Shown piece after piece: positions 45,401 to 51,328 of a DNA stretch of 64,000 nt. Position numbers and translations under genes: made by a program. Source of the stretch: Tricharina praecox. Its lineage: Eukaryota. Position 1 is the first letter of the stretch; the number at the start of each line of letters is the position of its first letter. The DNA is taken from the NCBI RefSeq assembly GCF_024521635.1, contig NW_026250407.1, positions 496,001 to 560,000 on the forward strand, written 5' to 3'. The notes below the pieces were generated by a model. It saw nothing but the letters and a program-made list of their open reading frames with translations, searched no databases and had not been told where the DNA came from.

Positions 45401-46089
45401 CGCTTCCTTTCAGGCTTCGGCATTCGGCCTGCGGCACTCGCCTTCGCCTTCGGAGGGCCTGGCGTTGCATGCATACATCACATTAGGTTGGCCGTTGGCC
45501 GGACACCAACGACCACTGACCACCCCTCCCACCTGGTTACGGTGGCGGCGCCACAGCGGGGTAGAATCGTAAGACCGTAAGAGCTTGGCCTGATTGAAAA
45601 GTGCTGTTCCTTTATACAGACATGGAGTACATGGAGCACATGGAGGGGAACATGTGTGTATGTGTGATGTATGTACGTGCGGGAACTGGTGGACGGAGGC
45701 GTTGTCGTCGTGCTGCTGGCTGGGAAGGCACTGGACAGTACTGGACTGTGGACTGTGGACAAGATACATGCTCTGTGAATACCTATTCTGATAGTTAATC
45801 CTCATACATTTCTATATCTCACACAAAAGAAACCAACCAAACACGCTTACCCGTATCAACGCATTTCCTTTTTTCCGTTTTCTCATTTTTCATTTTAAGT
45901 TTAATTTTCCGCCGCTGCTGCTTCGTCATACATAACCCGGCTCAACGCTTTTTTTTCTTCCCCTTCCTTCTTGCTGGGAGCCCTGGGAGCCTGGGACGCG
46001 CACTGATTGGCCACACGGAAGACAGATCCGTCCAGTTTTTGGGGTTTCGATTATCCGTCCGTGTCGTGTCGATAGCTCCGATCACAAGC

Positions 46090-46332
46090 ATGTGTGTGTG
46101 TGTGTGAGTGTGAGTGTGTGTGTGTGAGTGTGAGTGTGAGTGTGTGAGTGTGTGAGTGTGAGTGTGTGTGTGTGAGTGTGTGAGTGTGGGTGTGTGTGTG
46201 TGAGTGTGTGTGGGAGTGTGTGTGTGAGTATGGGAGTGTGTGTGTGAGTGTGGGTGTGTGTGTGTGAGTGTGGGTGTGTGTGTGTGAGTATGTGTGGGTG
46301 TGGGTGTGTGTGTGTGGGTGTGTGTGTGTGTG
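46090..46332. repeat. Degenerate (TG)n/(TGAG)n tract, about 240 bp
   Basis: Read directly. Confidence 0.95.
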
Positions 46333-48173
46333 CAGGAACAAGGATACCCCCCCTCCCCCCCCTCTCGCCGCAGGCTGCAAGCTGCAGCAGCTCCCTTCCC
46401 TTCCCTTCGCTCCCCTCCCTCCCCCCCCTCCCCTCCACGAGCCGCCCATGGGGCCATGCGTCTACTCTACTCCACTGTAAGCCCGATTCGACGTGTGGGG
46501 GAAATGTGAGGAAACGCCATGGCCAGAATCCAGATACCGGTACATCCACACCCTCGCAACTTCGATGTCGATCCCATTTCCCATGTCCCCCCCCCCCCCG
46601 TCCCCCTCCCACCCCATGTCGCAGCCTCATAGACTCGCTCGCTCGCTCGCGGAGCACAGCAGTGACGTACGGTACCCGACGCCGGCTGCGGACTGCGGGC
46701 GGTAGGAGTGCGGGATGCGTCGCCAGCCGTTGCACGGACGGATCGATTGGATTGGATTGCAGGATTGGAGGGGAGGGGAGGGGACGGGATTGGGTGCTAG
46801 CCTGCCAACCTGCCAACCTACCTGCTAACCAACCTGCCAGCCGCCAGCCCGCCCGCCCGCCCACCCGCCCATCCGCGTCCGCGTCCACTTCCGCTTGCGA
46901 CTTGCGACTTGCGACGTGCCGCTGGACGACCGGACGGTGCCCACACGACGATACTTGCTTGCAACCGTTCACTCAAGCTCTCAGGCTCTCAGTAGCCGCT
47001 AACAAGCCACAGCACCGCTAACTACCTACATACCGTAGCTGCCGCAAGCACACACGAAATCTATACTCGACATACATATCCACATGTATATCGAGAGTAC
47101 TGCCGTCGTGTCTCACCCGTTCCCGGTTAACTGGTGAAGCGCGGATGGAGGAAGCATCCTGGGAGGAAACGGAGCACCCTTCCTTCCTTCCTCCGTCCCT
47201 CCCTCCGTCCCTCCCTCCATCGCGTGCTGTCGGCTGAGTTGAGTTGGATGTGTGTGTGAGAGGGACAGAGAGTGTGTGTGAGCTGGCGAGCTGGTGAGTG
47301 GTGGGAGCTCTTCGGGGGGGGGGGGAGGGAGAAACGGAAAATAGACAAGACAAGAAGAGACAAGGGACTCGGGAGCAGAAGTTTAGGGAACTTGGAAGGA
47401 AGGAATACCTAGGCACGAGTATCTACCCAGGTAAGTATCATAGGTACAGGTACATACAGACTCCCTACGTCGGTAAGTAAGGTAACTTGGTGCGCTTTCC
47501 GCTCCACCTAAATTTCGTCACTAGAGTACGGTAGGTACATCGCAGGCCAAACGGCCGGCAACCAAAAAAAAAAAACGCTGAAGAATCCTAGTCCTGGTCC
47601 TTGATCGTTTGATAGTTTGCTTGCCTACCTGCCTGCTTGCCTGCTTGCCTGCTTGCCTCGGAAGAAAGAAAGAGATGGGGAAAAAATAGTATGATGATGA
47701 TGGCCTCTGATGCTATCGAGCGCTGGAGAGCATTTCCGAAGGAACTACCTGGTAAGTTAGGTATGCAGTTAACAGGACGTGAGTGAGTCGTCATCACGCC
47801 CCCCCACCAACGTTGCAGAAAAATACTATGCCGATCACTCGAGCAAAACCTTGTCGCTGCGAACACTGTCCAGGTACGATAATAAAGTGCATGCCACTAA
47901 CGGCGTGGGATGACGTTTAGGCAACATTGGACCGCGAAACATGATCGCCAGGACATCACCGGACTTCGCGACGACGAGAGAGAGAGAGAGGGTGAGGGAG
48001 AGAGAGAAGGAGAGAGAGAAGGAGAGAGAGAGAGCAGGTATTCGGGAACTCAAGAATTATCGTGACACCAACCATCTTCGTGCCGGACGATCTTCCGGCA
48101 ATATCACCAACAACCAATCGGACTTTTCGGAAGAAAAAAAAAGTACATCGACAAACGTCCGAACCACACACAA

Positions 48174-49617
48174 TCAGGGCAGCCCGCGACCGGAATTCAC
48201 AGCAGTCGCCACTTGACTCGTGTTGGGCCGGTTCTCTGTCGCCGACACGCGTCTGTCAGTAAACAACACACCCACACACCCACACGCACGTACACACGTC
48301 TGCGGAAGAAAGAAAACATTCGAACCCACCGGCGTATCGTTCGTAGCTGTCGAGGTACAGGATATCGTCACTCGTCGTGTTCCTGACTGCCTCGTTCGCT
48401 TCCAATGCCTCGATCCACCGTCCCAATCTACTGCTCTTCTCGGAAGGAGGCCACCCCCTGTACGGCTGGAGAACCCGAGAGAAGCGCAGCAACCAAGGTG
48501 CAACCGATATGTCGACATATGTCATGGTTAGGCCCTGTACTCCTATCCGTTACGAACAATCCCGTCACTGACGCCGACTTTTCCAACTCACGAGAAAAAA
48601 CGGGCCATCTGGATGAGCGACATCGACGAGTTTGGAGACCTGTATGTATGGCTGCCGTCAGTACTGATCAATGTCCCTCCACAGCAGTCGAAATCTCGTT
48701 GTTGGAGGAGTGAGATTCCGAATCAGCTAGCCAGCCATGGCTGCGCACTCGCTCGGTGGATGATCTCGCGTCTGCAGACGTCCTAGCATCACCACATCGA
48801 GCCGAAAAGGAGGGCCGATTGGATGTTACGAACTTCACTCTTGAGCTCCTCGGCGTACTGGACTTGCGTCTGCGTCTCTTGGGCCTGAAGGAGGCGGTAG
48901 AATCCGGGGACTATGTTACGGTTGATCTTCGCTGACGTTATCTAACCGGCTCCGTATATTCTACAGCATGGCAGTTTTTGAGAAGGGAATCAGGGTGCTG
49001 GCTCTTACATGGTCCACCCATAGTCGGGTGCGTGCTCGGTCTCGCGGGTCCTTGGGGAGGAGGGGCATGCCGATACCGAGGTCTTCCAAGTACTCCAACA
49101 ATACTGTGCTCTCGTAGCAGCCCCAGCTTGTTTTTATTTTTCGTCAATAAGGATGGTCCTTCGAGGGTTTCCGGCATTCCGAATACTTACTCTCCGTGCT
49201 TCAATGCGGGGACCAGACCTCGGGGGTTGATGTCGGTGAGGAGCTTGGGTTTTGCATACGGATCAACCTGGTGAGGGGCGTCAAAAGACGAGACCAAACA
49301 ACAGAGCTGGAGGGCAGGTTAACTTCGATATACTGATAATCCATTCCCTTCAGCTCCAATGCTATCCAGACCCGTTGCACGAATGGACTGTTCGAACACA
49401 CTCGTCTCAGTAGGCATCCTTGCTCGAGGGGGCCCTCGAACATCGTCGAGGCAAGGAGGGCGAACCAGAAGCACCCGCCAAACAACTTCAGATCGCATTC
49501 CTTCGAGTGATCCTTCACGGTCTGTAAGGCCTGTCCTGTGGCCTTCTTGTGGTATGTTTTCTGTTGTTCCTTCCCACCGGCAGAATTAGCCGGATTTGAT
49601 GGGGAACCGTCAGACAT
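48174..49617 (-). CDS. Glutathione S-transferase, omega/tau-like (short isoform, or the C-terminal part of the fusion)
   Basis: Eight exons: 49617-49466, 49387-49324, 49267-49191, 49126-49009, about 48926 (or 48941)-48834, 48639-48592, 48534-48330 and 48235-48174. Spliced motifs GCFCPFVQRVWIALE, INPRGLVPAL, YESTVLLEYLED, GPFFLG..YVD. Confidence 0.9.
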
Positions 49618-50464
49618 GGCCAGAAGCACAGATACGGTCTCAGAGGTGAAGTGAGATAGTCGATCAAAGAAATTGAGGAGTCAAGTCGCAGCTGAGGGAG
49701 GTGGTGGTGGTTGCAGGTGCGCGGGGGTAAGACGTAGATAGAGAAATGGAGGTTTAATAGAAAGATAGGGATGGAGAAGTGGTGAGACAACTTGTATGCT
49801 CGTATCTTCACTGCCAGCAATCAAGGCTCGTTCTGGCTGCGGTCGCGACAGAGCGCGTAAGAAGAAGGAGAAGAAGCAGGGGAAGAAGAAGAAGAGAAGG
49901 AGGAGAAGGAGGAGGAAGAGGAGGAGGAGGGAAGAGGGACAGATATCTATTTGTTGGTTTACAGTGCAGAAGCCGTATCAATCAATCCGATTTCCCCGTT
50001 TTCCGCACATGGATATCTTGGTCCCCACGGTATTCGGAAGTTTCTGTCCGTCTTCCTCGTTTCGAGAAAACTAGGCGTCAATCTTTCCCGAGAGGAGGGA
50101 AAGGTAAAGCGATATGACGTGGCTTATACGCTTGCCGAAAAACTTGCTACGAACATCACCACCTCCACACCGGCTGAGTGGCCGCAGATCGCTCTGGCGG
50201 CGGCGCTCGGTTGGGTACGCCCAGTATATGTATCTACCCCCTCTCCTCTACTCCGGGCGAGCCCGCACGCACGCACGCACGCACGCCAACGCGCAAGCAA
50301 GCAGAGACAGACAGACGAAATCATGACATGGCTACAAAGGCACCGTCGGGTGCACTGATTGTGATGATGCGAGGCAGCCAATTGCAATATGGATGGCGTC
50401 CGGCAAACGGAAGGGAAGAACCGCGAGACCGACGACATAGGAGTGGGTGAGAAAAAAAGCGTAC

Positions 50465-51328
50465 CTGCTGTTTTTTCAATTCCTTGCTTCGCTTCAGTCG
50501 GTCCCTCTCAATCGAACTCCTCTTAATCGCATCGCTGTGCTCCAGACTGTGTCGGTGAACCTCTCCTAGGAATCCCGGGACACCGTATGAATCCAGTTCC
50601 GCGAGGAGATGTGCTACGCCGGAGGTGCTGTCGTGGCCGGAGAGGGCGTCGGTTTCATTTCCCAACAGGTTGTTGACTCCCATCGATAGGCCGTTGACCC
50701 CGTCTTCGAGCTGCTGCTGATTGTATCCAGGCTGCGCCCCGGATAGCAGCGTTTGCAGTTGATGCTGGGCGATCAGCTCCTCACGATTCAGCTTTTCGAC
50801 GATATAGCCGCCACCGGGCGTCGGCCTATGCAGGACCTCCCGCTTCACGCGTTCGATCGTATACATCTTGACCGGGACCAATTCGCCTCCTCCTCCTCCT
50901 CCTCCTCCTCCGCCGCCGCCGCCGCCGCCGCGTCGGTGCTCCACGGATTCGGTCACCTTGATCTTCATGTCACACAGATCCCGGTCTCGTGCGACTCGCT
51001 TGCGCTTTTTACGGTCCGGATTCTGAAGGGAGGGAGCCACGCCCGGCGGTCTCCCCTTGAGCCGACAGTCGTAATAATGCGTCTTGAAAGGACCATTCTT
51101 GGATGTCTGGGTGCTCCGGTGCGACCAGACGTTGTCGATGTGTGGCCAGTACGTCTTCCACCTGCGATATAATAAGCGAGGGCTCTCACCGAGAGGGGAG
51201 GTGGGGGGGGGGTTTATGCTATCATACTCGTCTTCGGTCATGACGAATGTCTCCGCAGCATGAAACAGCCGTTCTCGCCATTCCCGGAGGTTGGGAGGTG
51301 TCTCCTCGAGGCCATTTGGGGCGGCCAT
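50465..51328 (-). CDS. N-terminal exons encoding a putative WRKY/GCM1/FAR1-like Zn-binding domain, probably spliced to the downstream GST
   Basis: Exons 51328-51228 and 51161-50465. Pattern HYYDCRLKG...KKRKR...LCDMKIKV...YTI...HRH (C..C..HxH plus a basic NLS). Ends at a phase-0 donor CAG|GTACGC. Confidence 0.75.

Follow-up and report, generated by a model that had tools for sequence, protein, structure and literature searches.

Glutathione transferase (GST) folds serve as regulatory modules in Ure2p and SspA, which regulate by binding other proteins and in which the catalytic Cys chemistry is lost. Omega-type GSTs perform thiol transfer or deglutathionylation instead of conjugation, as stated in PMC4470081. 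In the WRKY-GCM1 zinc fingers, the branch that includes FAR1, the MULE transposases, Aft/Rcs1 and Rbf1 carries a positively charged insert of 20-70 residues between the cysteines; the DNA contacts lie mainly on strands 1 and 2, and strand 4 'typically' has a Trp (PMC1702500). Here we analyze a gene on the minus strand of a 64,000-nucleotide (nt) stretch of Tricharina praecox DNA (NCBI RefSeq assembly GCF_024521635.1, contig NW_026250407.1, positions 496,001 to 560,000; hereafter the window), in which an N-terminal part with a putative finger of this kind is spliced to an Omega-like GST across a 904-nt intron. Our reading, to which we assign a probability of about 0.7, is that this is one Pezizomycotina gene with two ways in, one leading to a fusion mRNA and the other to a GST-only mRNA that starts within the intron.

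All coordinates are positions in the window, and residues are numbered in the fused protein unless P0001 (the 232-amino-acid (aa) translation of coding exon 2) or P0127 (the Tirmania orthologue) is named. The gene model, scripted from the joints seen in RNA contigs, has 10 coding exons and 9 introns, all GT..AG, with lengths of 66, 904, 78, 56, 64, 82, 194, 57 and 94 nt in gene order. It encodes 519 aa, or 522 aa via an acceptor 9 nt upstream that adds EQQ in frame. The part before the 904-nt intron comprises exactly 266 aa, as the initial annotation, made from the sequence, had stated in predicting a fusion of about 500 aa. The upstream frame runs from ATG 51328 through ...WKTYWPHIDNVWSHRSTQ...THYYDCRLKGRPPG...KKRKRVARDRDLCDMKIKV...HRHSLEHSD...SKELKKQQ. 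About 0.9 kb downstream lies the frame MSDGSPSNPANSAGGKEQQKTYHKKATGQALQTVK...LFGGCF, which continues after a short intron into CPFVQRVWIALELKG, a GST. The features of the gene are as follows, in gene order.

51228-51328, minus strand: coding exon 1, with ATG at 51328-51326; 33 codons plus 2 bases.
51162-51227, minus strand: intron 1, 66 nt, GT..AG, RNA joint.
50465-51161, minus strand: coding exon 2 (P0001, 232 aa), from the putative zinc-finger core through a disordered linker and HxH to a basic helix ending ...SKELKKQQ.
51065-51067, minus strand: Cys66 codon (THYYDC, end of strand 2), first putative metal ligand; invariant.
50981-51010, minus strand: basic run KKRKRVARDR, candidate nuclear localization signal and/or DNA-backbone contact.
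50972-50974, minus strand: Cys97 codon (LCDMKIKV, start of strand 3), second putative metal ligand; invariant.
50886-50931, minus strand: (GGC)n(GGA)n microsatellite, a 15-Gly run between strands 3 and 4; lineage-specific.
50549-50557, minus strand: His236-Arg-His238 codons (HxH), putative second metal dyad, followed by the invariant SD..K motif.
49561-50464, minus strand: the 904-nt phase-0 intron removed from the fused mRNA, from donor GTACGC to acceptor CAG, with a second acceptor, AAG, ending at 49570.
49859-49939, minus strand: CT-rich tract on the sense strand with period 3/6/9, within the long intron before the putative leader (sequence and Tandem Repeats Finder (TRF)).
49618-49854, minus strand: putative 5' leader of the GST-only mRNA, with no ATG within; the nearest upstream ATG is at 50010.
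49561-49617, minus strand: putative GST-only first coding segment (MSDGSPSNPANSAGGKEQQ), ATG 49617-49615, 19 codons; intronic in the fused mRNA.
49466-49560, minus strand: GST exon 1, from the N-terminal extension KTYHKKATGQALQTVK... as far as the second base of the catalytic Cys codon.
49324-49387, minus strand: GST exon 2; T at 49387 completes Cys298 of CPF, Pro-Phe at 49386-49381, then ...VQRVWIALELKGMDYQYIE.
49191-49267, minus strand: GST exon 3 (RNA joints and model).
49009-49126, minus strand: GST exon 4 (RNA joints and model).
48834-48926, minus strand: GST exon 5 (RNA joints and model).
48592-48639, minus strand: GST exon 6 (RNA joints and model).
48330-48534, minus strand: GST exon 7 (RNA joints and model).
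48174-48235, minus strand: GST exon 8, ending ...NRPNTSQVATAVNSGRGLP, with stop TGA at 48176-48174.
47660-48173, minus strand: 3' untranslated region (UTR), minimum extent; the X1 and X2 contigs continue from the last exon to 47660.

RNA contigs from four runs (X1-X4), out of six matching the stretch, were compared. X1 and X2 belong to two separate studies, all aligned pieces being at least 99% alike to the window, and X3 and X4 are soil metatranscriptome runs. The kind of run was only guessed for X1 and X2, which we read as RNA because all introns are removed in their contigs, unlike in DNA. The fusion mRNA is spliced across the long intron and encodes the 519- or 522-aa protein: contigs of both X1 and X2 skip exactly 904 nt between 49560 and 50465, with CT..AC on the plus strand and hence GT..AG on the gene strand, which is the junction that the initial annotation had proposed. 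All eight other introns are also skipped in these contigs, including intron 1 at joint 51159/51226 (cut +2; boundaries GTATGA..TCGCAG), and upstream of the ATG the contigs reach at least 51735 in X1 and at least 51900 in X2. A second joint, 49568/50464 (cut +1), is found in the same two runs and uses the AAG acceptor, with the exon starting at 49569 and EQQ added. The mean word depth is 113 (X1) and 129 (X2) at joint 49560/50465, and 75 in each run at joint 49568/50464. The shorter side of the 904-nt joint has only 27 letters, the length expected of a k-mer assembly bubble between acceptors 9 nt apart, but this is below the 30-letter line of the tool. The two acceptors (49561-49572) are both used, and at this place the Pyronema models have three extra residues and the Peziza models five.

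All positions given in the initial annotation were confirmed. Rereading the sequence also recovered the splice signals that had been named in advance: a phase-0 donor right after ...ELKKQQ (GTACGC from 50464), a branch-point-like GCTAAT at 49590-49585, and an acceptor CAG at 49563-49561 followed by an exon that reads AAA ACA TAC CAC (KTYH) from 49560. X1 and X2 further contain a contig that spans 49542-50493 unspliced, at depths of 59 and 53, or very roughly one quarter of the depth at the junction. In RNA retaining the intron, the upstream frame adds 47 unconserved residues before a stop at 50323-50321, which corresponds to a finger-only protein of 313 aa. The contigs of X3 and X4 have depths of only 3-7, the 904-nt joint is in neither run and no X4 contig lies upstream of 49844; we draw nothing from these absences. 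The contig ends beside the CT tract are likewise uninformative, because the CT repeat (49855-49937) was skipped in the read comparison.

The initial annotation mentioned similar long GSTs in other ascomycetes, and fused homologues proved abundant. A protein search with P0001 gave 360 relatives of 127-406 aa and 460 of 407-2000 aa. Among the 120 long relatives listed, 98 carry GST Pfam domains, 21 carry none and one carries unrelated domains. The closest named relatives come from Pyronema, Choiromyces, Morchella, Tirmania and Peziza (42-81% identity, best local alignment), which puts the window among or close to the cup fungi, and long relatives are also found in Aspergillus, Penicillium, Coccidioides, Histoplasma, Blastomyces, lichen fungi, Leotiomycetes and Dothideomycetes. 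The residues at the junction match: ...KKQQ|KTYHKKATGQ here, ...KEMKKVQ|KTYPKKASGQ in Morchella and ...KKQQKQQKTYHKKATGQ in Pyronema, while the junction ...KELKKQQKQQKTYHKKATGQ of Pyronema omphalodes is the counterpart of the acceptor that adds three residues here. Aligned end to end, the spliced protein is 59% identical to P0126 of Pyronema domesticum over 524 columns, 60% to P0124 of Choiromyces, 52% to P0172 of Rhynchosporium and 50% to P0161 of Coccidioides. The unfused models, such as the 288-aa P0004 of Trichophaea hybrida and several metagenome proteins, run past the donor into unconserved tails. The same fusion architecture is annotated across Pezizomycotina, and the fusion is, judging from these sequences, ancestral. 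Two relatives (P0138/P0194) have other domains: a Phaeomoniella model of 517 aa additionally carries a glutaredoxin Pfam domain, and in a Talaromyces model of 1096 aa the N-domain is joined to hexapeptide-repeat domains, the latter likely being a merged gene model.

The initial annotation also placed the start of a GST-only isoform inside the long intron. An in-frame gccATG is indeed present at 49617-49615, 57 nt before the junction; the intron, at 904 nt, is far longer than the gene's eight others (56-194 nt); and the pyrimidine-rich stretch noted in it corresponds to the CT-rich tract at 49939-49859 on the sense strand, a candidate core-promoter element of the GST-only transcript. A metagenome scan yielded 13 related loci from about five lineages, with 46-79% identity. 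The long intron, 461-821 nt in length, lies at the same phase-0 site in all eight relatives examined (the donor of one, L013, was placed by eye at GTGAGT, 6 nt from the pattern-matched position). Twelve loci carry the KTYH motif (L007 is left out of this count), and in 11 of them an in-frame Met stands 36-66 nt before the acceptor with no stop between. The 79%-identical locus L001 (MSDDSPPKPADSAGGKGQQ) and the 59%-identical L004 (MSDDSSSNPAAAPRADAGEEKQ) share the leader peptide MSD(G/D)S..(N/K)PA, with several third-position changes. In a comparison with L004, the final 50 nt of the intron show 66% identity and no gaps, and the flanking exons 58-78% identity, while the remaining intron is only 26-52% identical and heavily gapped.

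RNA contigs, a weaker line of evidence than these comparisons, also run from the intron into the GST exon. X4 has contigs at 49685-49844 and 49466-49691, and X3 at 49701-49849 and 49476-49669; they are unspliced at 49560 and represent RNA in which the leader and ATG 49617 are joined to the GST exon. A GST-only isoform of 272 aa from ATG 49617 is therefore likely on comparative data and on these intron-to-GST-exon contigs, which is the part of the earlier claim that stands; a transcription start inside the intron goes beyond what the contigs show. Gene models from other genomes show both products. The A. nidulans model AN5560 was formerly a 647-aa fusion and is now a 289-aa GST-only protein, Rhynchosporium graminicola has an older 616-aa fusion and, in a newer annotation, two genes of 373 and 303 aa, and A. 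tetrazonus has two proteins of 428 and 258 aa. By pattern match, 71 of the 120 GST-sized relatives of the A. tetrazonus protein have a Met and at most 30 residues before K[TS]YH, and most of the 33 printed pattern misses have the same build. Their leader peptides are conserved within groups, for example M.D.NQGGD..KK and M(T/S)D.NQ(G/N)GD..KK. A stand-alone GST of the basidiomycete Phanerochaete, listed in PMC4470081 supplement file 2, shares both the K-S-Y-H start region and the ...NRPNTSQVANAINSGRGLP end.

Several observations weigh against a second way in, and they are the case for supposing that the locus makes the fusion protein only. In that account unprocessed or intron-retaining RNA supplies the intron coverage, the ATG persists through splicing signals (branch point, acceptor region) or by chance, and the GST-only models are annotation artefacts of the long intron. 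The unspliced X1/X2 contig spans both donor and acceptor, so part of the intron signal is intron retention or pre-mRNA, and contigs carry no start, cap or strand information. The X1 depths of 275 for exon 2 and 242 for the GST exons, set against 113 plus 75 spliced and 59 unspliced, fit retention and balance without an extra start, although such comparisons are rough and, by the tool's own warning, contig depth cannot rank parts of a gene. Locus L010 has ATA in place of ATG. The ATG-free run of 393 nt was matched by 130 of 2000 shuffles and is not significant. The conserved ATGTCTGAC contains CTGAC, which resembles the branch-point consensus of CTRAY type, and splicing signals could explain part of the conservation. 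We nevertheless regard a fusion-only locus as unlikely. The intron is 5-15 times as long as its neighbours in every lineage examined, the in-frame Met and the open frame to the acceptor recur in nearly all loci, and within lineages the leader peptides show protein-level conservation. Moreover, the X3 and X4 contigs link the leader to the GST exon unspliced, the re-annotations of A. nidulans and Rhynchosporium independently chose the GST-only product, and the basidiomycete orthologue is stand-alone with a similar start.

The opposite possibility, two independent neighbouring genes whose fused mRNA is an occasional functionless read-through ('conjoined') by-product, would suit the adjacent pairs annotated in A. 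cristatus (SI65_00236 and SI65_00235), Coniosporium, A. tetrazonus and the newer R. graminicola annotation, as well as the fact that intron-retaining RNA would end the upstream protein at 313 aa. We consider it very improbable. The fusion joints are deeper than the unspliced form (113 + 75 against 59 in X1 and 129 + 75 against 53 in X2, again as rough figures), donor and acceptor are in phase 0 in all lineages, and the great majority of the long relatives listed are fused. The read-through tails are short and unconserved, with VS-stop in L004 and unrelated residues elsewhere, so that only the splice gives the upstream protein a conserved end. One gene with two entries thus remains our preferred reading, and annotations of the locus would disagree between genomes because of these two entries. 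On this reading, an older Omega-like GST gene would once have stood alone, its promoter, ATG-free leader and start codon (49617) persisting within the intron, and a second transcript from there would yield the 272-aa GST-only protein; we hold both steps to be strongly suggested. With ancestral GST signals inside the intron, the fusion would have arisen by splicing upstream exons onto an existing GST gene.

Few parts of the protein are as conserved as the N-terminal domain, which shows about 65% identity over roughly 70 residues between cup fungi and Aspergillus. Across 45 sequences from five classes, the invariant residues are T, Y, D, N, SHRSTQ, K, HY.DCR.KGRP.G, KKR.R..R.R, C..KIK..E and H.H....SD..K. 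A C..C..HxH pattern had been proposed for this region at the outset, and it holds: the 266-aa part has only two Cys, both invariant, and C66, C97, H236 and H238 (the two His being H202 and H204 of P0001) are unchanged in alignments of 45, 57 and 39 sequences. The insert between C66 and C97 has 30 residues, including the invariant K51, K52, R53, R55, R58 and R60 of P0001, and looks like a nuclear localization signal. A profile of 39 N-only proteins retrieved 604 cluster representatives at E ≤0.001 and 383 at ≤1e-10. The 15 Gly residues between strands 3 and 4 are encoded by a perfect plus-strand (CCT)8.7(CCG)7.3 microsatellite at 50886-50931; the run is absent from the 79%-identical L001, so the loop between these strands tolerates rapid length change.

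The AlphaFold2 (AF2) model of the Tirmania orthologue P0127, with a predicted local distance difference test score (pLDDT) of 85.9, contains in order a helix, a short strand-helix unit, four strands (59-66, 72-80, 108-118 and 124-129) and two helices after HxH, and the basic loop between strands 2 and 3 is at low pLDDT. The model of the window's exon 2 reaches a pLDDT of 60.9 and places the strands at 13-19, 26-32, 65-77 and 94-106. The conserved helix (...EWRERLFH...) and the strand-helix unit ahead of the sheet are both encoded by exon 1; FAR1 domains likewise have such a unit before the sheet. At the level of sequence and secondary structure, the Cys that closes strand 2 and the Cys that opens strand 3 occupy the ligand positions of WRKY domains. 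The N-terminal part would accordingly be a zinc-binding four-stranded sheet of the C..C..HxH type, of the insert-containing WRKY-GCM1/FAR1 kind, as suggested by the sequence, the model and the literature together.

Whether the likeness to known fingers goes as far as common fold and function was judged from sequence and structure comparisons, many of which weigh against it. No Pfam family was found for P0001 at E up to 1, and none of the 39 N-only members matched PF03106, PF03101, PF03615, PF08731 or PF04500 at E up to 10; the domain is not filed under any Pfam family because no curated sequence model matches. The profile of the N-only proteins gave only chance haemoglobin matches among PDB sequences (E 1.2-1.8). 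Foldseek found nothing in the PDB at E ≤0.001, with WRKY chains at E of about 0.8-1.0, the query being the model of pLDDT 60.9 without exon 1. Strand 4 is MYTIERV in the window's protein and RTFTIEKV or RYYTIQRV among relatives, with Y/F where W is typical, and HxH follows 16 to about 140 residues after strand 4, unlike in classical WRKY domains. These points would be explained if the N-domain were some other four-stranded module, PUR- or Whirly-like or an interaction or targeting domain, that localizes or regulates the GST. We find such a module rather unlikely. Five WRKY entries, covered almost whole, align at 17-23% identity, against 4% for Pur-alpha. The domain's only two Cys stand at the WRKY ligand sites and are invariant together with HxH, and a basic insert separating the cysteines, as here, is described for the FAR1/MULE/Aft branch in PMC1702500. 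The nearest named ESM clusters are ALS2CR8, FAR1, GCM and ZSWIM3_N at 0.76-0.85, below the 0.9 line and therefore leads only. We take ALS2CR8 and ZSWIM3_N to be FAR1-like families, and all named neighbours belong to families commonly placed with FAR1 and GCM. On balance, the N-domain is somewhat more probably than not a WRKY-GCM1/FAR1-like finger, built and probably working like one. Of the WRKY/GCM1-like fold originally suggested, the four-stranded sheet, the Cys positions and HxH are upheld, and a match in Pfam, PDB sequences or Foldseek is not.

The GST part is readily classified. The exon translations of the window match GST_N_2 with 27.8 bits (cut-off 25) and GST_N_3 with 24.3 bits (cut-off 22) in Pfam, and relatives carry PF13417, PF13409, PF02798 and PF13410. 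The CPF motif, taken at first sight as the mark of a Cys-dependent Omega-like GST, lies at residues 298-300 and is created by splicing 49466 to 49387, which completes Cys298; this Cys is invariant in the alignment of 45 sequences (C208 of P0127), and the nearest solved relatives are of the Omega or Cys type. With the Pyronema orthologue as the query, 90 PDB sequences matched at E ≤1e-5, the best being 6srb_A (E 8.9e-53), deposited as 'Uncharacterized protein', followed by TDR1, GSTO1, lambda GSTs, DHARs and SspA. The alignment with 6srb_A extends from the YH..ATG extension to the C-terminus, and via the Pyronema orthologue GST exon 1 matches its residues 8 onward. AbGSTO1 was considered as a characterized orthologue and rejected: it is a CPW-type GST that starts with MAQVNGN (PMC4470081 supplement file 2).

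Two copies of residues 172-429 of P0127 were predicted to pair, with an ipSAE of 0.89 in three runs against 0.00 for the best of three controls, 100% contact agreement and a partner pLDDT of at least 93; solved GST dimers exist, so this pass may be memory. The pairing mark was reached by 21 of 30 solved same-chain pairs and by none of 23 single chains, the corresponding figures for eukaryotes being 17 of 29 and 0 of 30. The prediction was made on the Tirmania orthologue, not on the window's protein, and shows likeness rather than binding. The GST part is predicted to pair as a classical GST dimer.

Set beside the described systems, the locus shares features with each and departs from each. Like the insert-type WRKY-GCM1 domains of FAR1, MULE, Aft1/Rcs1, Aft2 and Candida Rbf1, the N-domain has a four-stranded sheet with the same Cys/Cys placement and a later HxH. 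Its Lys/Arg-rich insert of 30 residues falls within the 20-70 described, and its conservation peaks on strands 1-2, the DNA-contact strands according to PMC1702500. It differs in showing no profile similarity to PF03101, PF03106, PF03615 or PF08731, in reading (W/Y)SHRSTQ where strand 1 of WRKY reads WRKYGQK, in having Y/F and not W on strand 4, and in the variable, partly disordered linker before HxH. It also differs in its GST partner, an architecture absent from PMC1702500, where glutathione goes unmentioned. With the Omega-class GSTs (6srb_A, human GSTO1, Leishmania TDR1, plant lambda GSTs and DHARs), the second half shares the thioredoxin-like N-domain, the helical C-domain and CP(F/Y), and with 6srb_A in particular the N-terminal extension ..YH..ATG.A..TV, a classical dimer being predicted here. 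In Pezizomycotina the enzyme gains an N-terminal region of 266 aa (here) to >450 aa via an upstream promoter and the long intron.

Ure2p and SspA resemble the present protein in using a GST fold as a regulatory module, and SspA chains, including those in the RNA-polymerase complexes 6wmu_K and 7c97_I, match the GST part at E 1e-16 to 1e-11. Here, by contrast, CPF is retained, and the fold is part of one polypeptide with a putative DNA-binding domain of its own. The closest comparison is with database entries named 'glutathione transferase' (Pyronema omphalodes KAI5819841.1, A. nidulans AN5560, the A. fumigatus orthologue AFUA_4G11770, Coccidioides and Histoplasma), which have the same architecture and junction at 50-60% identity. 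Their printed names mention neither the N-domain nor two products, and their models flip between fused, GST-only and two-gene forms.

These comparisons allow a possible mode of action to be outlined. The invariant polar and basic residues of strands 1-2, together with the KKRKR-rich insert, may bind DNA, and the insert probably also carries the protein into the nucleus. The GST domain is predicted to keep its catalytic Cys, to bind glutathione there and to dimerize the protein. As a dimer, the fusion protein would bind DNA with two heads, and it could also form pairs with the GST-only isoform. We hypothesize that glutathione, a glutathionylated ligand or a thiol at the Cys-GST site modulates DNA binding, or, alternatively, that the fusion brings thiol-transferase or deglutathionylation chemistry to chromatin proteins; the GST-only isoform might compete through mixed dimers. 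The fusion protein may, as the initial annotation imagined, be nuclear and have a regulatory or redox-sensing role. The full proposal, an undescribed transcription factor of filamentous ascomycetes in which a transposase-type (FAR1/MULE-like) finger was joined early in the history of these fungi to an Omega-like GST as dimerizer and glutathione/redox sensor, tuned by mixed dimers with the GST-only isoform still made from a promoter inside the intron, we put forward only tentatively and hold to be improbable as a whole. If it were true, it would provide a direct link between glutathione chemistry and gene control in Aspergillus, Coccidioides, Histoplasma and many plant pathogens. If at least the N-domain binds DNA, an unstudied glutathione-wired regulator would be present in fungi that include major human and crop pathogens.

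A search of titles and abstracts, with subscription journals and bioRxiv supplements outside its coverage, found nothing on the N-domain, the GST fusion or the two products, and no paper was found on AFUA_4G11770/Afu4g11770, AN5560 or 6SRB. The papers found that pair glutathione transferase with WRKY are, by title, all plant work. Fungal GST surveys treat such proteins as enzymes only, and one GST survey cut long forms to the GST range (SNOG_06949.3:414-606 and Lema_T051760.1:519-811, in PMC4470081 supplement file 2). The new elements would be the GST as partner of an insert-type WRKY-GCM1-like finger and, on the side of the Omega-like GST, a new N-terminal module and a nested ancestral start. 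The locus would offer a clean example of a fusion protein arising while the ancestral gene survives inside the new intron.

Some further observations concern the locus and its surroundings. In the metagenome locus L007 (positions 432-1001, 51% identity), a decayed copy of the N-domain has most of the basic insert between the cysteines deleted and a stop inside HxH, and the 5 kb that follow showed no GST motif; this is apparently a pseudogene or a broken duplicate copy. X3 differs from the window at 48133, 50336 and 51032 (G>A, A>G and G>A), each in one low-depth contig, which is either a near-identical strain or assembly error. The GST intron at 48640-48833, of 194 nt, is two to three times as long as its neighbours. 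Besides the (GA)n microsatellite that the 3' UTR carries at 47976-48034 (TRF), microsatellites include (TGCC)n at 47618-47658, ACACACCC repeats at 48266-48285 in the last intron and (CGCA)n at 50264-50286 in the long intron. Downstream of the gene, 45940-46970 consists of long CA/TG-type low-complexity DNA with His-Thr-rich pseudo-ORFs (open reading frames) on both strands, and is probably a non-coding repeat.

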